From Plasmodiophora brassicae (taxonomy: Eukaryota): a DNA stretch of 64,000 bases. Of this stretch, positions 38,157 through 52,434 are shown in pieces. The notes beneath the pieces are model-generated. The model saw only the letters and a list, made by a program, of their open reading frames with translations, had not been told where the DNA came from and searched no databases. The stretch lies in NCBI GenBank assembly GCA_036867785.1, contig CP145418.1:62001-126000 (forward strand), written 5' to 3'. Each line of letters starts with the position of its first letter. Within the stretch, counting starts at the first letter, position 1. Made by a program: the position numbers and the translations under genes.

Positions 38157-38665
38157 CCTGCTTTGGCGACGATGTACCTGGATATCAAGGGTTCGCTCCC
38201 CGGAACGGGTACGCAGGGCAGATTCATTACTATCGGGGCCGATCTTCGATGGCTGTGCCGAATCGAACCATGTACGTGCTCTTTCACTACTGCCCACGTC
38301 TACCTGCGTCTACAGATACTACTGACTGGATGACTCGCATCACCTGGGCGACATGCCATTGCAGGCGGGAAGGTCATTGCTCTGGCAATCGCGAACGAAC
38401 CGACGACGACACGACTGTAGAAACGGAACGGCAGCTGTGGCTGGACGCCAGGACGGCGAGACACCAGGTGCCAGTTTACGGATGACTGTACCAGGTTGCT
38501 AGTGCCTAGGCGTACCACCGCTGGAGACGGTGGCCTCGACAGTCTGTCCTTGGCGATGCCGTGCGGTCCCCTTCTGCTGTCCGTCTCCGGCTCGGCACAG
38601 TGTCGCCAGTCGGGTACAGGCTGGCGATGGGTCTGGACCAGCGGGCATTAGCAAGAGGCGCCACC

Positions 38666-41600
38666 ATGTCGACTATGCTGCGCGTCGTCGTGATCTTCGT
38701 GCTAGCCGCCGCTCCAGCCATCGGCAGCGAGTGCCCGTGCAAGAACCGGTCTGCCGTTAGCCTCGTCCTGCTCCAGTACGGAGATCCAACCAGCGACCGC
38801 CCGTTCGCGGTACCGCCTGGGCGACACGTGCACACACCAGCTACGATACCTAACTGCTCCCTGCGTTCAGCAAACGTTGGCCGGGTTCCTGGAAGGCGGC
38901 AAGGCCATGCGAGTCCGCGCGACGCCGATCCACATCAACCCAGCGCTTCGCGCGACGAACAGCTTGCCGGGGACCACCACCTTCATGAACCAGCACCTGG
39001 ACGCGATCGCCAGTATGGATCCGCCGCCGAGCGGCGTCATCCTGCCGCTGCCCAACTACCCTGCCATCGCCAGTAAGCTGTCGGTCCTGGTCAGCAAGGG
39101 CATCCCCGTCATTTCGTTCGGGTCGGGATGGTCGGTGGTCAAGAACATGGCGAACCCGCCGACCCTGTTTCACATGGGGGCCGACGAGGTCGCCACCGGG
39201 AAGTCAGCGGGCGGGCTGGCGGCGCGTATCGGCGGGCACCGTGCCATGTGCCTGTACGACCAGTCGGACGACGTCGCCCTCACCGACCGGTGCTCCGGGT
39301 TCGCCCGCGGGTTCAACACGTCCTGCGCGTCGACGGTCGACGCCTGCCCAACGCAGTCGCTGCTGATCGACAGCAGCGACCTGACCGCCATGCAGATCAT
39401 GCTGCAGGACGCGATCGCGGCGAACGCGAACCTGAACGTCGTCGTCGTCAGCACGGGTGCCATTGCCGCGGCCGTCGTCAGGTTGATCGGCAACATGGCC
39501 CTGCCGTACAAGATCTACGTCGGCTGCTTCATCAGCGACCAGTACACGGACGCGTTGCTGGCGTCGGAATCGCTCTTCTTCGCCGTGTCCCGCCAGGAGT
39601 ACCTGATGGGGTACCTGGCCGCCACGCTCCTGCAGTACTACGTCACCACAGGGCAGAAGTTCGCCAACCCAACCATCTCCACCGGGCCCGTCTTCCTCAC
39701 GCCCGGGTACACCGCCCCGAAGACGGCGTCCATCGACAACGTGCTGGTCGAGCAAGTCGTGCACGGTAACGGCGGCGCGGCGCAAACGGGTCAGCGTCGC
39801 GCTGACGGCACCCACCTGCACAGGCCGAGCCATTGACCCGTTCTGGGGCGTGTACGCGACGGGCGCCAGTGAGGCGGCCCGAGACGTCGGCCTGAGGTTC
39901 GTCAACTGCGACGTCGCCGGGTCGGTCTGCGACGGCACCCGGCGCACGCTGACGTACCGTTCGCCCGGCAACCAGTTCGACCTGACGACCATGGCCACGA
40001 AGCTGCTGACGTCGGCGTCAAACGCGCCGAACGCGATGATCCTATCGGACCCGAGCACGCAGGTCCTGGGCTCCACCATCAACCAGGTCGTGAAGACCAA
40101 CGGGATCCCGGCGGTCGGCGTCAATGCGGGAGGCAACGACGCCGAAAGCCTCGGCCTGCTCATGTTTGTACGTCATGATCAGCGCTGACGGTCGCCCTCC
40201 CATGGGATCCTGAACCCGTGCCCAGTTCGGGTCGAACGAGCCCATCGCCGGACAGGCTGCTGGAAAGCAGCTGGGCATTGCAGGTGTCACCAAGGCCCTC
40301 TGCGTCAACCACGAGCTCGGTTGGCCTCCCCGCACGTCGGATGCACGCCTGGGCTGACCCATGCGTCGTCCTACACAGGGAACTCGGCGCTGACGCAACG
40401 CTGCCAAGGCCTGGGCACTGGTCTGGCTGCCTACCGGGGCGTTAGCGACCCGACGACAGTGTACACGATGCTGCCCATCTCCCTGACGGATGTCTCCGGC
40501 ACGGCAACGGCCATCACAGCAGCGCTGCAGAACGACCCGTCCATCAATGGTGTCCTGGTGCTCGGTTCGGCCGCGGTTTCCAGCGTTCTGCTCCCGCTCC
40601 AGCAAGCGGGTTGGGTCGCTGGCCACCCGAGCACCGACCGCGTCAAGGCCATCGGCTCGTTCGACCTGGACGGGCCGTTGCAGGCGGCCATTCAGGCCGG
40701 GTACGTCCTGTTCACTGTTCTCCAGCAGCAGCACATGCAGGTCGGTTGCTGCATCCGCTCTCGGTAGGGCATACCGCTAAACAGTTCGAACAACCAGGCC
40801 TACATGCCCGGCATCGCGATGACGTTGCGTTCGTCGACCGGCCTGAACCTTCTGGAGTCCTGGATCCTGACGGGACCCTCCCTCATGACGAACGTCGGTC
40901 GCTCGTGCGCGCTCGTCGGCCGCGCCTGCCCCTGACCTGTGCACTAGTCGTCGATCGCCGCAGTGAACTGTCAGGGCGAGCCTGCTTGTCCTTCATCGAT
41001 GGAGTACAACGTGGCCGCGTCAGAGTCGTCGTGCCCGCGTCCAGAGGTACGCCAGTGCGGCGTGATGACGCGCGATGGATGGGACCCTGGTTCTGACGGG
41101 TGGCATTGCGCGTCGCAGTGGGCCGGTGACGGGTGGTGCGATGCGATCAACAACGTCCCTGGCTGCTACGACGGCGGCGACTGCTGCTCGTCGACCTGTG
41201 TATCGAAGACCGACTACTTCCAGTGCGGGTCCGACCTGTACGGGCAGGGCACGAACAGGTTCAACTGCCTGGATCGCAGCACGGTCGAGGGCGAGGCCAT
41301 CTACTGCAACGCGCACCTGTCCGACCCGACGTGCGTCAGCACGGCCACCAAGTACATGCCGGCCGGCGTCGCTGCTATGTTCATCGCCCTGGCCTGCACT
41401 GCCATCGCTTGCCAAGGTGTGAGGCGTATGCATCATGCCTTGCGCTAACTGACGACCGTCCGCCCTACTGCTTGGCTGGATCGCAAGCCAGCGCAAGACG
41501 AGGACGCTCTTCTACGCGTCGCCCCCAATGCTGGCCGCGAGTCTGGCCGGTGGCATCCTGGCCGGTGTGTTCGCGCTCCTGACGTCGGTGACGCAAACGG

Positions 41601-42595
41601 CGAGCATTTGCACGGCGCGGGCGTACCTGGCCCCGATCGCCGTCACGCTTGCGCTCTCGCCCAACACGCTCAAACTCTTCCGCTTCTACAAAGTAAGGGG
41701 GGCGAATGGGTGTGAACCGTTCTGCGCGCATGGGGTTCACTCGTAATCGTCGCCCAGATCTTTAGGAACAAGACGATGAAGGTGGTGAAGATCCCGAACG
41801 CTCAGCTCCTACTGGGCGTCGCTGCGCTGCTCGTCGCCGACATTGTCGTCGTGTCAATCTGGGTTGGGGCGTCGCCGTTCACGATGAATCTGCGCACGCC
41901 AAACACGTGTCTGTCGCCGCTGGACACACGCTTCGTGATCGCCCTTGTCGTTCTGAAAGCGCCGCTGTTCCTTTCGGCAATGTACTTCTCGAACAGCCTC
42001 TCCCGTACGACCTCAAAGAGCTTCGACGTGTTCAAGGTCGACGTTGGCGCCATCACGACGTTCCTGTGGGTTGCGGTCATCTCCTTCGCCATGATCATTG
42101 TGGTCATCGTGGTCGTGGGCACGTCGGCGAACGGGACTGTGCTCGCTCTTCAGACGGCCGCCGCCGTTATCATTGCCGGTCGGTGCCATTCGGATGGATA
42201 CTCGCCGTTCTGACCCATGGGAACGTCTAGCTGGGCCGACGTTCCTGACGGTGCAACGTGGCATCATCGTGTTGCAGGACGCACGTGACGCCAGCAAGAC
42301 GAAGGTCACTGTGAAGAACTTCTCGGGGCTGGGCACGATTTCCGGCACGCAGCGGCCTGCATCGACGTCGATCGGTAAACCGGCCGGCGCATCCGATGAG
42401 GACGCGACCAGCGGGGAGCACAAATCGCTGGCGGCCGCCATCGCCGACCTGAAGGGCCAGCTCGATCGCGCCACGCTCGACTTTGAGACCAAGATGAACG
42501 TCATGCTGCGCGCGCAGGAGAAACTCGACGCCATCCGCGACGAGTACATGCGCCTCGTCGTCGAGCAGGAGTACCAGGAGGCACACGGCAAGTGA
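38666..42595 (+). CDS. Class C (GABA-B-like) GPCR: signal peptide, two periplasmic sugar-binding-type domains, LNR-like Cys-rich module, 7TM, C-terminal coiled coil; multi-exon
   Basis: Signal peptide MSTMLRVVVIFVLAAAPAIG; two repeats with GIPVISF/GIPAVGVN, ALTDRCSGF/ALTQRCQGL, QEYLMGY/QQHMQAY and DPFWG; WAGDGWCDAINNVPGCYDGGDCC; 7TM with ASPP, CTARAYL, KLFRFYKIF; heptad-rich tail. Confidence 0.82.
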
Positions 42596-42767
42596 AACCC
42601 GCCGCCCGCCATCCGATGGCGCAGGCCAGACATCTCCTCGTTCCACGAATCCTTTTCGTTTCAATTGTGCTGGTAAACAGCTGCGCTCAGAACGCGTTCT
42701 ACCAGGTGTGTTCGCACAGGGGGGGGGGGCACACAAGCGAGTTCGGAGCGCAATGGCGTTGGGCGAT

Positions 42768-45700
42768 TTAAGTAGAAGTCGTCGCTTCCGGCGCGTGCTG
42801 GGGCGCCTGTTGCCGGGATGGCCGGGGACCTTCGATACCCGCGACCATCTGCCGGGTTGTTCGTCTGGACGGGCGTGGCGCATCGCTGCGTCGCGGCGCA
42901 TCAGCGACGTTCTTGGCGTCGTTCGCCCGCTCGGCGCCGTCGTCCTCGTCGTCGTCCGGGTCCTCGAAATCGTCGTCGTTGTCGCCCTGGATCTTGCGGA
43001 CGATCACCTTGAGCAGGTCGAGCGGCAGGACGATCAGGATGGCCCACATCCAGGCCAGCGCCGCCAGCCTCCACGAGATGCCCATGAACATGGTCCGGAT
43101 GGAGAACATGGTGACCGGGCCGAAGCCGTACACGCCGATGAACGTCGCGATCGTCTGCGCCAGGAAGAACGCCGCCAGCATCGCCCGTGGCGGCCGCGAC
43201 GCGAACACGGAGCCGCGCGTGCGCGTCACGAAGATCGTCAGCTGGCTGCTGACGCTGACGATGATGAAGATCAGGGCGCGCAGGCGCGCCAGGCGCCCTT
43301 GCTGGATGTGGCAGACCTCGACGGCCAGCGCCTCGTGACATGGCCACATGATGTCGCCCTGCAGGCTGTACGTCTGCTTGTAGTACTCCCAGATCGCGTC
43401 GTCGTACGACACGCGGGGCGGCACCGGGCGTAGGAAGTTGCCCGCCTCGCACGGGGACAGGTCGGCGCGCGGGAACCGGAGCTCCCAGTTGCAGTACGGG
43501 TCGCTGTCCGGCCCGACCCGGTACGTCCCGTCGAACGCCTGCAGCGGCTGCACGCCGAACACCTTCGGGAACAGGGGCGTGTTGCGCGCCAGCGAGAACA
43601 GGATGATGGTGGCGAACGCGAGCCAGAGGGCGGCGACGGCCGCTTGGCCGATGACGCGCCCCAGGCGCCATCGCTGCGGGCGCCGGGCGACGCGCTGCCG
43701 GTCGGTGGCGATGACGACCATGGTGGCATCGTTGACGACGACGATGAAGATGACGGCCGTGGCCGGGTAGTACCAGTTGTACGCGATCGTCAGCAGGCCG
43801 AACGTCAGGGCGATGCGCAGGGCGGACGCCATCGAGTACGTCGCGTACGCGCGCATCCGCGCCATGGCCTGGCGCGACAGGCGGATCGCGGCCGCCAGCG
43901 ACGACAGCCCCGGGCGCACCGACACGAAGTCGGCGGCCGACCGCGCCGGCGCCGTCGCGCCCGCCAGCGCCACGCCCACGTCCGCGTGCGACATGGCGGG
44001 CGCGTGCGACCCGGACGTGCCGGTCGCGGCGACGATCGGCGCCTCGTCGCGCGCGTCCTCCTCCTCCGTCGGCGGCTCGGCGTCCGGGTCGGCGCCGGCC
44101 TGCGCCGGCGCACTGCGCAGCGACTGCAGCGCCTTGATGCCGTCGACGATCGTCACGTACTGCTCGGACTTGACGCTGGCGTAGTTCGTCCCCGCCGGGT
44201 CGTCTCCGATCGTGAACGTCTCCGACGCCACCTTGACGGGCAGCGCCGGCAGGCCGACCCGACCGACCAGGTCGGCGACGGCGTCGGCCCCGTCCGCGGA
44301 CACGACCATGGCCCGAACGTGGAGGTTGTCGACGACGTCTTTCGCGGCGGACGTGTCGTCGTTGTTGCCGCTGCCGCCGCTGCTGCTGCTGCTGTCGTCG
44401 TCGCCTTCGCGCAGGACGGCGACGCCGACAAGCTCCCAGTTGACGTCGCCGAACGGCATATCGGTCGGGTCGCGACTGACGCCGACACCGACGCAGACGA
44501 CGCCGCGCTGCTCTTGCAGGGCGTAGACGTCGTCCAGGACGCGCTGCCGGTCGTCGTCGCCGAGGTACCCGTCCATGCTGACGACGACGTGCGGTGTGCC
44601 GATCGCGACGCGGAACGTGTTGCCGTTGGCGCGCACGCGCACCGAGGCCACGGCGCGTTGCGTTTCAGGCGACCAGGGTAGGCGGTGCGTCAGCTCCAGC
44701 TCGCGCCACAGGTCGTCCGCCTGCGGGCACGCCTCCAGGATCGCGTCCCGTTCCCGGTCGCGATCGTCGTCGCCCGTCCTCGTTGTCGGCATGCCGACCG
44801 CCGCGTAGAACACGACCTCGTCGGGCGAGAACGCGCTCGATGCGATACAGGCGCCGTCGTCGAGGCGCAACGGGCGCTGGACCGGGTCGTGCCCGTCCGA
44901 CGTGATCGCGATGACGTCCATGCCGGACAGCCGGTCGATGGCCTGCAGGCGTCGAGCGACGAACGCGAACTTGGCCATGGCGATGGCGGCGACGGCGCGC
45001 GTCACGCCCAGGACGATCGGCATCGCCAGCGGCATGGCACCGACGATGACGACGAGCGTGTTGCTGACCAGCGACTTCCACGGCTGCTGCCGGGAGCGGC
45101 TGACGGCGATCTCGACGACGACGATGACGCTGGCGCAGGCGACCAGAACGGCCGCCATCTTGGACAGCGTCGGCGCCCGTGCCGGCGGCTCGGCGCTGAT
45201 CGCCTTTAGGTGCCGACCGTAGACCGTGTCGGGCCCGGTGGCGACGACGATTGCCTCCGCCGTCCCCGACAGGATCGTGGCGCCCGCCAGCAGCAGCTTG
45301 CCGGGCGCCTTCTCCACCGGCGCCGTCTGCGACGTCACCGGGAACAGGTCGACGCGCACGGCCCCCTGCGTCGTGATGAGGCAGTCGGCGGGCACGACGT
45401 CGCCGGGCCTCAGGTCGAGGATGTCGCCGGGGATGACGCGCGACGCCGGGACGGTTCGCCAGGTTCCCGATCGCTTCACGGTGCTGTCGGCGGGCAGCTG
45501 GCCGTCCAGGGCGCCCAGGAGGCCGGCGTGGCGCAGGGCGGTGTAGTACGACAGGACGGCGTGCAGGACGCAGAGCAGGGCGATGACGACGCCGTCCGAG
45601 ATGTTCCCGAGGCCGAACGACAGGAACGCCGCCAGGGCCATCAGCAGCGACAGCGGGTGGAAGACGGCGCGGACGGCGCGACGCGGGCGGGAATCGGGGC

Positions 45701-45962
45701 GCACGCGCTTGAGCAGGTCGTTCGACCCGGCGGTGAAGCGTTTGAGGATGGCGGACGACTCGTCGACGCCGTCGGCGAGCGACGAGCCGAACTGGGCGAC
45801 GATCTCGTCCAGGGGTCTGCGCTCCCAGTACAGAGCGTCGAGGTCGCTGACCGCGACTGGGTTGGATGAGGGGTCGGCGTCCGGCCGTGGCGTTTGTTGT
45901 TGCTGCGGCTGCGCTTGTGGCGGCGGCCGATCCCGGCCGTCGTCGCCGGCATCGCCCTCCAT
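42768..45962 (-). CDS. P-type IIIA (plasma-membrane H+) ATPase-like protein with degenerate catalytic motifs, intronless 1064 aa
   Basis: PGDILDLRPGDVVPAD, VVATGPDTVYGR, GAMPLAMPIVL, APAMSHADVGVALAGATAPARSAAD, SRQAMARMRAYATY, VVNDATMVVIATD and IFVTRT all follow the P3A layout. DKTGT, TGES and GDGVND are absent. Confidence 0.85.
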   Translation of the reverse strand: MEGDAGDDGRDRPPPQAQPQQQQTPRPDADPSSNPVAVSDLDALYWERRPLDEIVAQFGSSLADGVDESSAILKRFTAGSNDLLKRVRPDSRPRRAVRAVFHPLSLLMALAAFLSFGLGNISDGVVIALLCVLHAVLSYYTALRHAGLLGALDGQLPADSTVKRSGTWRTVPASRVIPGDILDLRPGDVVPADCLITTQGAVRVDLFPVTSQTAPVEKAPGKLLLAGATILSGTAEAIVVATGPDTVYGRHLKAISAEPPARAPTLSKMAAVLVACASVIVVVEIAVSRSRQQPWKSLVSNTLVVIVGAMPLAMPIVLGVTRAVAAIAMAKFAFVARRLQAIDRLSGMDVIAITSDGHDPVQRPLRLDDGACIASSAFSPDEVVFYAAVGMPTTRTGDDDRDRERDAILEACPQADDLWRELELTHRLPWSPETQRAVASVRVRANGNTFRVAIGTPHVVVSMDGYLGDDDRQRVLDDVYALQEQRGVVCVGVGVSRDPTDMPFGDVNWELVGVAVLREGDDDSSSSSGGSGNNDDTSAAKDVVDNLHVRAMVVSADGADAVADLVGRVGLPALPVKVASETFTIGDDPAGTNYASVKSEQYVTIVDGIKALQSLRSAPAQAGADPDAEPPTEEEDARDEAPIVAATGTSGSHAPAMSHADVGVALAGATAPARSAADFVSVRPGLSSLAAAIRLSRQAMARMRAYATYSMASALRIALTFGLLTIAYNWYYPATAVIFIVVVNDATMVVIATDRQRVARRPQRWRLGRVIGQAAVAALWLAFATIILFSLARNTPLFPKVFGVQPLQAFDGTYRVGPDSDPYCNWELRFPRADLSPCEAGNFLRPVPPRVSYDDAIWEYYKQTYSLQGDIMWPCHEALAVEVCHIQQGRLARLRALIFIIVSVSSQLTIFVTRTRGSVFASRPPRAMLAAFFLAQTIATFIGVYGFGPVTMFSIRTMFMGISWRLAALAWMWAILIVLPLDLLKVIVRKIQGDNDDDFEDPDDDEDDGAERANDAKNVADAPRRSDAPRPSRRTTRQMVAGIEGPRPSRQQAPQHAPEATTST

Positions 45963-46219
45963 GGCCTGGATGAAAAGTTTTCAAGTGGCCAGAGCCGGCG
46001 TGTCGACCGGAACCATATCGTCGGGTGACACAACGTCGGCGTGACGTCACCGGCGCGACGACGTCACGAGCCGACGTTTCCGAAACGGCCTGCGTTTACA
46101 CAGGTTGTGCACAACCTGTACGCCGCCACGTTGCAATACATAAGGAAAGGTCGGGGGGATCGCCGGAACGGTACCCGGCCGCCGTCGGGGCACTGATCGG
46201 GTCGTGCTCGACGTGGCGA

Positions 46220-49200
46220 ATGCAATTCCTGGGGCGCGGTATGCGCCGACTCGGTGTCGACGCCGCCGACACGACGTTCGACGACCTGCGTCGCGAGCTG
46301 GACAAGGTGACGGCGGCGGCGCCGCCTTCCGCCCCCGACCTGCACCGTGTCGCCGAGCTGAAGCGCGAGGTCGTTGCCGTTCGGCAACGCTTCGTCGAGT
46401 ACGCCGCGCTGCTCCAGGACGTCGTGCTGGATGCCGTCCGCGAGACGCGAACGAAACGCGTCGTCCCGGTTGTCGTGGAGCAGCACACAGGTCATGTCGA
46501 CACGTTCCAGCAACGGTACGACGCCCTGCAACGCGTCATTGCCGACGAGCGGCGCGCGGCGAACCTGCTTCCGCGTGTCGTCGTCAACGTGGAATCGCCG
46601 GGCAATCGTCTGGACGTCATCGTCGAGCTCGCCCAGGCTCGTGCGGAGCATCAGGCACCACGGTGCGGCTGGCAACCGAGCGACAACGCATCCGCTTGCC
46701 AGGACGAGGTCGCCGCGCTTCGTGCTGCCTTGTCCCGCGAGGTGGACCGAAACGCGGCCCTCGTGGCGAACGCGGGCGCGCTCGCACGAACACACGAACG
46801 GGTTCGTGCCCTGGTGGAAGCCGGGTCCACGTCGTCGATGTCGGAGCTCTTGTCGCTGCGATGCGATCTTCAAGCCGGGTTGGCGCGCGAGACGACGCTC
46901 CGCGCGGACCTGGATGATGCCCGGCACGAGGGCGAAGAGCTTCGTCGACGACAGGGCGAACTGGAGTCGTTGCTGAAGGAGAGCAGGAGGAAGGTGTTGG
47001 ACGAAGAGGCGTTGGTGCAGCGTCTGACCACCGAGAGGCGTGAATCGGAGGAGACGTGGCTGGCGCGAATGGAGGCGATGCGGGAGGAGATGCGCGCCGA
47101 GGCGGAACTGTGGAAGGACGAGCAGTCGAAGGAGATGGAGCGGCACCGCCGATCGTTCCGCGAACGGCACCGCCTACTGGACGAGCAGTGCGCCGCCCGG
47201 GAGGCGGCCCTCGCTGAACGCCACGAGAAAGAGATCGCCCAACTGGTGATCCTGCACGACGAGCAGGTCCAGCGCCTCCAGGACGAGATCCGCACGTACG
47301 AAGGCATGGTGCCCGTGGCCGTCGTCAACGACAAAGTCGCCGACGTCGAGTCGCGATGGGCGGATGAGCGCCGCCACTGGGAGGCATCCAGGTCGGCGTC
47401 GCTCGCCGAGCACGAGGACATGCGATCGCAGATCGCGACCCTGCGCGGCCAGCTGCACGAGATCCGGGCCAAGCACGCCGACACGACGAAGGCGCTGCAG
47501 GACGCTCAGGCGGCGACCGTCGCCGACCGGGACAGCGCCGAGCGCCGCGTGCAGGACGCGTGGCGGGCGGCACGCGACGAGGCGCGCGCCGACCTGATCG
47601 CCGAGCGCGACCGCTGGCAGGCGGACCACCAGCAGATCGTGACGGACATGCAGAGCCGCGCGCGGGACGCGATCGCCGCGTACGAACAGGTCTAAGCACG
47701 CGACACCGCGCGCAGTCCGTGGCTGCTGCAGCTCTGACTCGCGGTCGCTGCCAGAAACTGGACGCAGCGGCGGATGTGGCGCGCGCCCTGGACGCGCGCA
47801 TCGGCGAACTGACGGCGGAGCGGGCCCGATCCGCGCATCGCATTGCCGCGCTGGAGGATCAGGTGCGATGCGTGACGGAGGCGGCGACGCAGGCCGACGC
47901 GGACGCACGCGCCGAACGGCACCGCGCGCTGGAGCTCGCTGAGGAGCGTCGCGCTCAGGACCTGGCGGGCGCGGCGCAACAGTACCCACCGCGTCGTTCG
48001 TCCCGGGTCGGACGCCGCGAGGACTCAACCCGATGTGGCAGGTCGGCGGCGGCGCTCGCGCAGGTTCGCGAGGAGGGCCGACGGGCGGTGCTGGAGGCGC
48101 TGGAAGCGGCGCGCGCCGACCTGGACCGGCAGCGGCTCGAGTGGGCACGGGACGCAGACGTACGTCGAGGGCGGCGCGCGTCCGCGCGCTCACGCCTGTC
48201 TGACGCGAGGGCGTCCTCCATCAGGAGCGCCTGCAACGTGAGCTGTCGGCCCGGGAAGCGTCCACGGTCGCCCAGTGGCAGAGCAGAGTCGAGGCCGACG
48301 CCGATCGCATGCGAGCCGTCGTCGAAGGGCACGCCGCGCAGGTCTCCGAAATGTCCAGGTCGGGGGGCGTGTCGAACCCGTCATGGAGGGGGGGCGCCGC
48401 CGTTTGCCTGACGCCACGCGGCACAGCCGACTGGAGGCGGCGCGCGACAAGTTCGAATCCGACCTGAACCGGCAGGTCGCGGCGCACAACGCCGAGGTCG
48501 CCGCCCTGCGATCGCAGATCGACGCGCTGGCGGGCGACGTCGCCAACGAGCGCCTGGCAGCGACGGAAGCGAGGCAACGTACGAACCGTCGGGCGGCTGC
48601 CATGGCGGAACCACTAACCTGGACGAGCACAGGATGCGCCACGCTGGACGCGCTGCGGGTCGACGTCGAATCCGCCGCCCTGGAGCGCGATCGGAAACGG
48701 GCCGAGGAATGGACGGAACAGAAGGCGGAGCTCACGGTCCTCGTTCAACGACAGGCCGAGGAATTCGCCAAGGAGCGCCAGGTCCGAATCGCCGCGTGCC
48801 CTGTACGACGCTAGTGATAACGTTGTCGCCCCCGGCAGGCGCTGCTGAACCGGATCAGCGAGCAGCGCGCTCGACACGCCGAGGAGCACGCCGAGCTGGT
48901 GGAGCGCGCGCGGGACTCACTTCCGGAGGACCGTGAGCGGATCCGGGTGCTGGAGGTGGAGGCGGCCCGGCAGCAGGCGGCCGCCGAGCAGATCGTCAAC
49001 GAGGTGCGGTTCTACAAGCTCGAGCTCGTCAATCGGGACGAGGCGCTCCTGAAGCGCTTCGGCGACCCAGAGCAGAGCCGCTCGCGCCCGTCCGTCCCCG
49101 GCGCCAAGCCGCACCTGGCCAGCGTCCCGAGGCGGAGGCCTCGTGAGGGGCAGCTGCCCGTCGTCGTCAACCTGAACAACCAGGCAGGACTCGGGCCTGG

Positions 49201-49261
49201 GAACGGAGGGGTTCCTCGACCGCGACAGATCATCCAGCATCACTGGTCGTCGTCTAGCTAA
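46220..49261 (+). CDS. Long coiled-coil protein, FAM184-like, multi-exon
   Basis: Extended E/R/A-rich heptads across several exons. C-terminal RFYKLELVNRDE resembles the conserved FAM184 C-terminal motif (recalled, not searched). Confidence 0.6.
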
Positions 49262-49286
49262 ACGATAGCACATTGTATGGGACCCC

Positions 49287-50822
49287 CTACCCCATCTTCA
49301 GGATGTCGGCGGCGATGTCCGTCTCCAGGAACCGATGGAAGGCGGCGTACTCGAGCAAGGCACGAAGCTCGGTCCAGGCGCGGTCGAACACACGGCTGTC
49401 GATATCGATCGAGGGTGCCGGCCGCGTGTCGACCTGGGCGCCCGGCTCGAACAGGTTCACGTAGGCGCGGCGAAGCGCACTGGAGATGTTGATCTCGAAG
49501 GGCGCGCCGATCCGGATGAACGTGGTGTAGATCGTGTGCGCGTCGACGACGACCTCGTCGGCCACGATGCGTAGTGGGTCGGTCCATTCGGGTTCCATCA
49601 GCGCTACAATCGATGAATCGCTTCGTTCGCCTGTTGCTGTTGTCGTTGTTGTTGTTGTTGACATTGCAGACAGCAGCGGCCGATCGTGCTGTACTTTGGA
49701 CCATTTCCTGATGAACTGTCGGCGCGCCTCGTGGAACAGCATGGACTCGACGGCGAACTCCTTCTGCAGGTACTCGGTGAAGGCGAGGCGGATCATGTCG
49801 ACCTCGAGTAGCTGGTCCATGCGGCCGTACTGTGGCCCGACACGCGCGTTGGCGCGCCGCGCCCAGTAGACCGGCATTAGCAGCGATACACTGGTCGTCA
49901 CCTTTGTCACGATCCACGTCGACAACCGCTTCATTGGCGTATGCTGTCCGTCTATCCGATACGATTTGCACCCATTAGGACGACCCATATCGAACGTCGA
50001 GTGAGGGACAGGCGCCTACCGATGGGCGGGACGCAGTAGTTGGCGACAATGGTGCCCACGATGCCTATGACGGAAACGGCTGTGATCTCCAGCTGTCCAG
50101 ACGCCGACTCAGTCCCGTTAACCCATGATGGAAGGTTGCGCGTCACCGCGAACTTTGATATGGAACGCATCGTGGCAATTGCCCAGCTGCAGGATGATGA
50201 CAAAGACCATGATCAGGTGCAGGAGGATGACGCTGTTGTTGAATTGTGTGAAGGCGCCGGGCAGGGCGGGCATGCCCTGGCATTCCGCATAGGCAACGGC
50301 CATAACGACGACGTCGATGGCCATCAACCCGAGGAGCACTTTGAACCAGAACGCTTCCTTCACCAAATAGGGACGTGTGGCGAACAGCATATCGGTTCGG
50401 CTGGCCTGGCCCTGCTCAGGATGCGGTTGCACAGACGAGGCAATACGCAAGACAGTGTGCTGCTGTGCAACGGCACCGGTATGGGCGAAGGTGGTGGCGC
50501 TCAGCAGCACTTTCGCCCTCGTCCGCCGATAGTTGCAGTACAGGAACGCGGTGCGCACCAAGGTGCCATGCAGGGGCGTCAGGTTGAAGACGACGGCGGC
50601 GATCAGACTGGCCAGGATCGACTCGGGGTATTGGCTGGCGACCCAGTCGCTATACGGGATCAGGGCGACCAGCACCTCGATGACGATCACGATCGTCGGA
50701 TGCCGCTCCCGGATCGGCGTCCGGTCCCAGTGCCGGACGAAGGCCACGAACATCGCCAGCAGGACCGTGCAATCGTACGCCAGGAAGCCGACCAGCTCCA
50801 CCTGGTCGTCGTGGCTCACCAT
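49287..50822 (-). CDS. 7TM-RGS protein, tandem copy A (two introns)
   Basis: MVSHDDQVEL... TM helices, NCHDAFHIK, then RGS FTEYLQKEFAVESMLF...FIRIGAPFEINISS...FDRAWTEL...AFHRFLET. Confidence 0.88.
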
Positions 50823-50902: not shown

Positions 50903-52434
50903 CTAGCCCATCTTCAGGATGTCGGCGGCGATGTCCGTCTCCAGGAACCGCTGGAAGGCGGCGTACTCGAGCATGTGTCGAAGTTCGCCCCAGGCGCGGT
51001 CGAACATGGCCTTGTCGACGACGTCGAACTCAGCCGGGGGCGCCTGTGCGCCCGCTGGTGACTGTTCGACGCGGTCGGGTTCGAACAGGGCCTCGTACGC
51101 GCGGCGTAACCCGCTGGAGATGTTGATCTCGAACGGCGCCCCGACCTTGATGAACGTCTTGTAGATCGCGTAGGCGTCGTCGACAAGTTCCCCAGGAACC
51201 GACCCGACGGGGACGGCCCACTCGGGGGCCATCGACGCCGACGAATGGCTTTGTTCGGATAGCGTCGTCATCACCGACAGGGGCGTGCGATCGACGGCTC
51301 TGGACCATTTCCTGGTGAACTGGCGGCGTGCCTCGTAGAAAAGCATGGACTCGACTGCGAACTCCTTCTGCAGGTACTCGGTGAACGCCATGCGCACCAC
51401 GTCGACGTCGAGCAGGCGGTCCATGCGGCCGTACTGTGGCCCGACTCGCGTCACGCCGCGTCGCGCCCAGCAGACCGGCAACAGCAACGACACGCTGGTC
51501 GTCACCTTCGTCAGCAGCCACGTCGCCAACCGCTTCGTCGTCGAATGCACGTCGCCTGCAGGAGCCACCCGAATCGATTAAAACAGCACACGACGTTGTA
51601 TGGGATCGGGACGCGCGTGTACCCGCAGGCGGAATGACGTAATCGATGACGATGGCTGCGACGAATCCGAGAACAGCATTCGTTGTGATCTCAAACTGGA
51701 TCATGCCCGGAGAGTCAGCCTTGCTGTGCATGCAACGAGGCGACACGAAAGAAAGGGGGCACCTTGATGTGGAACGCGTCGTGGCAGTTGCCGAGACGGA
51801 CGATGAAGACGACCATGAGGATAAGGTGCAGGTAGGTGGCGCCGTTGTTGAACGACGTGAAACTGGCGGGCAACGTCGCCATCCCGCTGCACATCGCATA
51901 GGTGACGGCGATGACGACCAGGTCGGCGACGATACAACCGAGGAACGCTTTGAACCAGAACGTCTCCCGGACGAGGAACGGGTGCGCCGCGAAGAAGACG
52001 TCCACTCGAGTGACCTGCGGTCGCTGCTGCCCCACACGTCCAGGTTGGCCTTGCCCTGCGTTGGAGGTCGCAACGTCTACAACAGGAGGGCACAGGGCGA
52101 CGCCGGTCGCGCTCAGGAGCACCTTGGCTTTGGTCCGCCGATAGTTGCAATACAGGAACATGGTACGCAGCAGGGTGCCATGCAGGGGCGTCATGTCGAA
52201 GATGACAACGCCGACCAGGCTGGCCATTACGGAACCGGGATACTGGCTGACAACCCAGTCGCTATACGGGATCAGGGCGACCAGCACCTCGATGACGATG
52301 ACGATCGTCGGATGCCGCTCCCGGATCGGCGTCCGGTCCCAGTGCCGGACGAAGGCCACGAACATCGCCAGCAGGACCGTGCAATCGTACGCCAGGAAGC
52401 CGGCCAGCTCCACCTGGTCGTCATGGCTCACCAT
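50903..52434 (-). CDS. 7TM-RGS protein, tandem copy B (two introns)
   Basis: Paralogue of copy A with the same intron positions and RGS motifs (FIKVGAPFEINISS). Confidence 0.88.

Follow-up and report, generated by a model that had tools for sequence, protein, structure and literature searches.

Introduction

P-type pumps are treated as strictly catalytic. The roles of the phospho-Asp and the other P-type catalytic residues (PMC10654040), and of N106, E113/E114 and other residues along the proton path of the P3A pump AHA2 (PMC5387105), have been described. Here we report a P3A H+-ATPase homologue of the clubroot parasite Plasmodiophora brassicae that probably no longer pumps. It is encoded at the PBRA_007898 locus by an open reading frame (ORF) of 1064 amino acids (aa) on the minus strand of the window, a stretch of 64,000 nucleotides (assembly GCA_036867785.1, contig CP145418.1, positions 62,001 to 126,000 of the forward strand). 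On sequence grounds we put at roughly 0.9 the probability that it is a retained, non-pumping P3A pseudo-pump whose catalytic cycle was lost before Plasmodiophora and Spongospora diverged.

The P-type ATPase PH1 of Petunia and Citrus keeps DKTGT. No transport activity is known for it, and it binds the P3A pump PH5 and boosts its activity (PMC6391481, PMC10654040). PH1 is a P3B (MgtA-like) protein without the TM5 Arg, as stated for P3B (PMC10654040), whereas the window protein is P3A, keeps its membrane Asp and Arg and has lost the motor. Trypanosomes, also parasitic protists, keep dead paralogues, prozymes, that activate AdoMetDC or deoxyhypusine synthase (PMC5201418, PMC3663545). Prozymes are soluble enzymes whose binding to the active paralogue has been shown, whereas for the window protein we infer such binding. 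Yeast Pma1-D378T and Pma1-D378N carry the same changes of the phospho-Asp as P. brassicae (Thr) and Spongospora (Asn). The yeast alleles are described as dominant-lethal, misfolded and retained in the endoplasmic reticulum (PMC3692421), whereas the plasmodiophorid changes are natural, fixed and old.

In the open-access literature we found no description of a natural dead P3A pump, no paper on PBRA_007898 and none on a P3A ATPase in Plasmodiophora. Neither 'pseudoenzyme' nor 'inactive' occurs in a 2023 review of the P-type superfamily (PMC10654040). Judged from the alignments and trees below, the pseudo-pump is real, old and conserved, and has become fixed in Plasmodiophora and Spongospora, both parasites of crops. 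Together with an intact sister it forms a natural series that shows which pump parts are kept once pumping stops, and it raises the testable question of whether a P3A body can regulate, sense or leak without a motor. Proton-pump inventories of these parasites may be wrong, since the Spongospora protein is misnamed 'Plasma membrane ATPase' and the P. brassicae gene model excises an unspliced 'intron'.

Identity and catalytic state

The gene occupies a single frame of 1064 codons with no internal stop:

42768..45962, minus strand: intronless ORF, 1064 aa, putative P3A H+-ATPase pseudo-pump, PBRA_007898 locus

Its product is 98% identical to that of P. brassicae PBRA_007898, and the GC content at third codon positions (GC3) is 0.93 along the full length, which is a coding signature. 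Profile, sequence, fold and trees all identify the protein as a P3A H+-ATPase by descent. The best profile is TIGR01647 of NCBIfam (E = 2.7e-116; next profile 6.6e-32), with a score of 390, under the cut-off of 615; the Pfam Hydrolase domain is no longer detectable by profile search. In a phmmer search of the PDB, AHA2 (5KSD) matches with E = 1.9e-79 and Pma1 with E = 1.5e-53. The AlphaFold2 model (mean predicted local distance difference test score, pLDDT, 81; predicted template modelling score, pTM, 0.81) retrieves Pma1 and AHA2 at Foldseek ranks 1–6, with a TM-score of 0.83 to 5KSD by target length, and in trees the protein is nested inside the eukaryotic P3A pumps. Hydropathy and the model show A, P and N domains and about ten transmembrane helices. 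An earlier note, made from the letters of this DNA, had described an uninterrupted 1064-aa ORF with P3A topology, and the stop-free frame, hydropathy and fold bear it out.

The window protein resembles AHA2 (5KSD), yeast and Neurospora Pma1 (7VH5/9UGB/7NXF) and TIGR01647 in domain order, ten-helix fold, M4 PxAMP, M5 Arg and M6 Asn-Asp. It differs from AHA2 and Pma1 in having no ATP-binding, phosphorylation or dephosphorylation motifs, in a His at N106 and in a large M7-M8 loop with four cysteines. The sites concerned are listed below.

44883..44921, minus strand: phosphorylation loop MDVIAITSDGHDP, aa 348-360; DKTGT reads TSDGH (NKSGT in Spongospora)
45324..45335, minus strand: actuator TGES reads TSQT, aa 210-213; the Glu-to-Gln change is common to the Spongospora orthologue (TGQI)
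44592..44603, minus strand: KGAP reads IGTP, aa 454-457, ATP-binding Lys gone (KGAP retained in Spongospora)
44292..44300, minus strand: TGD reads SAD, aa 555-557 (TSD in Spongospora)
44004..44021, minus strand: Mg-binding hinge GDGVND reads GTSGSH, aa 648-653 (GDGVHD in Spongospora)
45561..45563, minus strand: His134 replaces the M2 gate Asn (AHA2 N106), which the Spongospora orthologue and 39/39 canonical pumps have
45018..45032, minus strand: M4 PLAMP, aa 311-315, kept; aa 301-320 identical to Spongospora at 14/20 positions
43728..43817, minus strand: M5 Arg716 (AHA2 R655) to M6 Asn744-Asp745 (N683-D684), kept

As a reference set we used 39 canonical eukaryote-type P3A pumps, picked from the matches for DKTGT, TGE[SA] and GDGxND. 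AHA2 numbering follows the 5KSD alignment; the offset of 11 was chosen to bring D329, N106 and D684 into line with PMC5387105. Residues D329, K330, T331, T333, E184, K423, R456, D487, G512, D588, N591 and D592 are invariant in 39/39 pumps, and all are changed in the window protein. Invariance at the DKTGT, TGE[SA] and GDGxND columns is by construction, because the pumps were pre-selected for these motifs; that of K423, R456, D487 and G512 is not a product of the selection. The phospho-Asp position is occupied by Thr354 (44901-44903), which replaces D329. The other substitutions include E184 to Gln, K423 to Ile, R456 to Val, D487 to Glu, G512 to Ala, D588 to Thr, N591 to Ser and D592 to His.

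The earlier note had listed degenerate DKTGT, TGES, KGAP, TGD and GDGVND motifs. In the phmmer alignment to AHA2, a comparison that the note had proposed, each falls at the canonical motif. Its coordinates were exact for TSQT (45324-45335), off by one for GTSGSH and slightly displaced for the phosphorylation loop (about 44885-44925 rather than 44883-44921). PLAMP in M4 and the Asp of M6 VVND (aa 742-745) are retained, as it had said. We add the change of N106 to His134, the loss of the M2 entry glutamates (E113/E114 to Thr141 and Ala142), the replacement of DPPR by EGDD and the kept M5 Arg. Equivalents of D95, P286, R655, N683 and D684 are all kept. At the proton site, the M6 Asp (Asp745) and M5 Arg (Arg716) are present; the M2 Asn and the entry glutamates are absent.

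By residue membership, the window protein does not qualify as an active P-type ATPase, and it fits the sequence definition of a pseudoenzyme, a homologue of an enzyme family without the catalytic residues.

Orthologue, intact sister and phylogeny

A full HMMER search over 1.84 billion representative proteins returned a single outstanding match, P0122 (A0A0H5QW77 of the potato parasite Spongospora subterranea; 619 bits, 39% identity), with the next match at 337 bits. This orthologue is also disabled: it reads NKSGT, TGQI, TSD and GDGVHD, and it retains KGAP, DPPR and N106. It has in common with the P. brassicae protein the E-to-Q change, the loss of the M3-M4 Cys loop, an N-domain hairpin and the extracellular loop. 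It differs in a milder decay of the motor, and its database name, 'Plasma membrane ATPase', is silent on the losses. Because the decay is milder (KGAP and DPPR kept), A0A0H5QW77 might still bind nucleotide.

A further protein, P0314, is 55% identical to P0122. Its N-terminus is truncated and every catalytic motif is intact. Like the dead pair it carries SxRVRANGNT in the N domain and four cysteines in the M7-M8 loop, and its motifs mark it as the natural, presumably active control for the dead-pump family.

In an IQ-TREE analysis of 26 proteins the dead pair forms a clade (support 100/99), to which P0314 is sister (99/98). For 14 proteins under a C20 mixture model the corresponding values are 96/96 and 98/99. 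P0001 was flagged as a long, compositionally odd branch in the tree; long-branch attraction of the pair is unlikely, given the common indels and motifs and the C20 support. Derived changes common to the pair include E184Q, G284A and deletion of the M3-M4 Cys loop. These characters and the tree agree, and inactivation therefore began before the Plasmodiophora/Spongospora split.

Altered phosphorylation or TGES motifs were also seen in the P3A-like proteins P0145, P0191, P0211, P0169, P0150 and P0170, with NKTGT and TGQW in P0191 and NKTGV and TGDC in P0211. A single origin of the degenerate P3A-like matches (P0145, P0191, P0150, P0170, P0211 and the pair) was rejected by the approximately unbiased (AU) test (p = 5e-62). 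Since these five group apart from the pair (P0169 not included), Asp-to-Asn and Glu-to-Gln losses recur independently.

A metagenome scan for further orthologues yielded 17 loci from 471 pattern matches, with 21–32% identity to the window protein and 0 orthologues. Such blanks are weak, as the word search missed canonical eukaryotic P3A pumps and a search with region 640-920 of P0122 missed the window protein.

Regional constraint

The two dead proteins have changed unevenly along their length. P. brassicae keeps 23/73 conserved columns in the P domain vs 26/35 in M5-M10 (p = 3e-5), and Spongospora 54/73 vs 34/35 (p = 0.003). Pair identity falls to 20% in M1-M2 and 21–28% in P, against 40% in N, 46% in the outer loop and 44–50% in M5-M10. 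Active pumps show the opposite pattern, with P the most conserved part (65–81% identity). The P. brassicae branch is very long overall (1.8 under LG+G4). Per-domain branch lengths, estimated on a fixed topology of 12 sequences, place the excess: relative to the median canonical tip, the branch to P. brassicae is 13.8x in P, 5.4x in M1-4, 3.6x in A, 1.5x in N and 1.4x in M5-10. On these comparisons the motor and its moving parts (P, A, M1-M2) are relaxed, and the static M4, M5-M10, the Cys loop and an N-domain surface are constrained. Two of the kept elements lie outside the membrane:

44616..44651, minus strand: N-domain segment VASVRVRANGNT, 12/12 identical in Spongospora and near-identical in intact P0314
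43287..43577, minus strand: extracellular M7-M8 loop of about 97 aa with Cys 824, 838, 875 and 884, cysteines common to Spongospora and P0314

The N-domain segment is a candidate interaction surface. In the M7-M8 loop the dead proteins are 46% identical to each other and 27–35% identical to P0314 (35% for P. brassicae), which is itself about 21% identical to other pumps there. A model of the loop (pLDDT 69, 4 alignment rows) gave no Foldseek match at E 0.001, and its ESM Atlas matches were all under 0.9. The earlier note was right that a late loop contains cysteines; the feature is not peculiar to the dead protein, as intact P0314 has the same four.

Transcription and strain variation

We mapped four runs from four studies on 37500-49500; the runs are presumed to be RNA, each showing GT..AG joints in neighbouring genes. 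In each run one contig covers the full ORF without a joint and ends at 42742-42748, 20–25 bases past the stop codon (4/4). PBRA_007898 is therefore transcribed; contig depths cannot rank genes by expression. No stop or frameshift is listed in the ORF in four other data sets, and contigs drop rare variants. As expected of a pseudoenzyme, the gene is intact, transcribed and conserved rather than a pseudogene.

Strain differences were taken from the 40 of 129 variant rows listed (40/42 for the run carrying them). Among those listed, 17 fall in the ORF and 11 are non-synonymous, all in the cytosolic part. One strain model of PBRA_007898 has an in-frame indel in a Ser run. At about 44354-44410, a low-complexity Asp/Ser/Gly insertion stands in place of the DPPR hinge and differs in length, in frame, between strains.

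The earlier note had proposed a retained non-pumping protein, and transcription, a disabled orthologue in another genus and constraint on the membrane half support that proposal. It had named as contrary outcomes a functional Asp motif at the catalytic site, or neutral evolution without expression. No alignment places a functional Asp motif there, the gene is transcribed and the membrane half is constrained.

Possible roles

In the account we favour, the ancestor that Plasmodiophora and Spongospora have in common lost the catalytic cycle of a P3A copy, which was then kept for a non-pumping role. Decay would have proceeded in steps, from the intact sister, through point losses with a recognisable motor in Spongospora, to the collapsed P domain of Plasmodiophora. 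The most likely job would be that of a prozyme-like partner subunit, comparable to PH1 beside PH5: the protein would join an active P3A pump by way of the membrane domain and adjust how that pump works, assembles or is trafficked. Asp745 and Arg716 would then be a structural pair in the membrane core, possibly pH-sensing, rather than a transport site. Taken whole, with the role as partner subunit included, this statement is tentative, and we hold it at slightly less than even odds.

Precedents for such assembly exist in yeast. In the Pma1 hexamers described, TMH7/10 packs on TMH3/4 (PMC8575881), and catalytically dead Pma1 alleles with the Asp-to-Thr change are reported to form mixed oligomers with the wild-type protein, to its harm (PMC3692421). 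Spongospora probably has other P3A copies as well, since its spore transcriptome lists 5 transcripts annotated EC 7.1.2.1 (PMC8256667); these are known by annotation only, and three of them, with similar identifiers, could come from a single locus. Of the three roles the earlier note had offered, pH sensor, passive H+ conductor and regulatory partner, the last is the best supported, though unproven. The conductor is the weakest of the three, since decay has reached both the mobile M1-M2 gate and the residues of the cytosolic entry.

Several observations weigh against a retained partner subunit. Part of the interface used by Pma1, namely M3 and the M3-M4 loop, is poorly kept in the window protein, and the same substitutions in yeast misfold the pump and poison wild type (PMC3692421). 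A failed or toxic yeast complementation, the assay the earlier note had suggested, would for this reason be ambiguous, as Pma1-D378T and D378N are dominant-lethal (PMC3692421). The case for a function is based on two orthologues. No intact P3A named P. brassicae or Spongospora occurs among the 120 matches listed. That search listed 5/10 control pumps, due to rank, and 4/4 of those sharing at least 12 words with the query; as P0314 shares 28, the blank carries some weight. We looked for proteomic evidence of PBRA_007898 and found none. There was also no match in the supplements of PMC4471660 (parts), PMC4815078 (parts), PMC11191646 and PMC7397026. The listed strain variants cut both ways. In favour of retention, the membrane part has 0 non-synonymous and 3 synonymous changes (Fisher p = 0.03), but the test is weak, as its domain borders were fixed with the variants already in view and one change (aa 333) falls at a border. 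The ratio pN/pS (non-synonymous to synonymous polymorphism) over the same variants is about 0.66 overall and about 1.3 in the cytosolic part, and therefore much of the protein drifts.

A stand-alone surface sensor or scaffold, in which the pump body anchors the four-Cys loop to meet a ligand, pH or the host surface and signals through the N domain with no pump partner, is unlikely but a serious contender. The higher identity of the loop within the dead pair (46%, vs 27–35% to the intact sister) fits it, although the loop was inherited from active pumps and the excess is partly kinship; the loop is also without a structural or family match. Despite the loss of the ATP Lys in P. brassicae, the N domain has stayed constrained (1.5x and 0.4x relative to the canonical tip length). 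Asp745 and His134 could form a titrating pair, but Spongospora lacks His134. The blank for an intact P. brassicae paralogue among the 120 matches is as this reading expects; the receptor-like genes nearby are, in a eukaryote, no sign of a functional link. A stronger version, more doubtful still, is that P. brassicae lacks a working P3A pump altogether and that its sole copy, deprived of the motor, has turned into a surface receptor, with the Cys loop and a buried Asp/His/Arg site reading pH or host contact. If true, the intact sister, Spongospora and Plasmodiophora would record a stepwise conversion of pump to receptor. Liming suppresses clubroot, and such a receptor could bear on the pH dependence of the disease.

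We consider a passive, uncoupled H+ conductor (leak or uniporter) working through the kept Asp745/Arg716 site improbable. Both dead proteins keep equivalents of D684, N683, R655 and P286, and the two M5 tyrosine columns are invariant across the alignment; all these residues are reported to line the AHA2 cavity (PMC5387105). However, the mobile M1-M2 gate is the least conserved membrane part (20% pair identity), P. brassicae has lost N106 and both entry glutamates, and AHA2 R655 has been proposed as a block on proton re-entry (PMC5387105). Without the motor, alternating access would have no known driver.

It is equally improbable that the gene is slowly decaying and, at least in P. brassicae, no longer has a function. 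The branch of 1.8, the cytosolic pN/pS of about 1.3, the low-complexity P-domain insertions and the Ser-run indel of one strain model are what decay would leave. They stand against a 1064-codon frame free of listed stops and frameshifts in four other data sets, a GC3 of 0.93, transcription, a membrane half that evolves at about the rate of active pumps, and an inactivation that predates the Spongospora split (common E-to-Q).

A non-canonical active pump, with the nucleophile shifted to Asp356 or another energy source, is highly improbable: the AlphaFold2 model keeps the whole P-type fold and an Asp is present in TSDGH, but active pumps make up the alignment behind the model, and Asp356, two positions past the usual site, is not read as a shifted nucleophile because it is Ser in Spongospora and its partner motifs (ATP Lys, DPPR, hinge Asps, TGES Glu) are all lost.

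Gene model and neighbouring genes

The RNA contigs also bear on the gene model and on the transcript end:

43869..44156, minus strand: in-frame GT..AG stretch, aa 603-698, excised as an intron in the NCBI model; unspliced in RNA contigs from 4 studies
42742..42767, minus strand: short 3' tail; contigs end at 42742-42748 in 4/4 runs

The junction of the aa 603-698 intron is matched by none of the 15 joints listed (17 total) in the 4 runs, which give no support to the spliced form as a real form of the gene. The NCBI intron in PBRA_007898 is probably an annotation error. A frameshift, intron or assembly artefact is rejected, since the frame is equal in Logan protein P0002 and the NCBI model and the contigs cross it without a joint among the 15 of 17 listed. 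The contig ends at 42742-42748 are a weak hint of the transcript end, one contig being loose-ended there.

A divergent, intronless ORF of 491 aa lies at 46220-47695 on the plus strand, without a Pfam match, its start 257 bases from the pump ATG. One contig covers both the pump and this ORF in runs X1 and X4, which is not proof of a single transcript. The 5' regions of the two genes may overlap or share a promoter (45962-46220). Nearby ORFs, at 36630-38156, 38907-39836, 41776-42213, 49287-49988 and 50903-51424, are rich in RGS-domain, periplasmic-binding and 7tm_3 receptor-like types.

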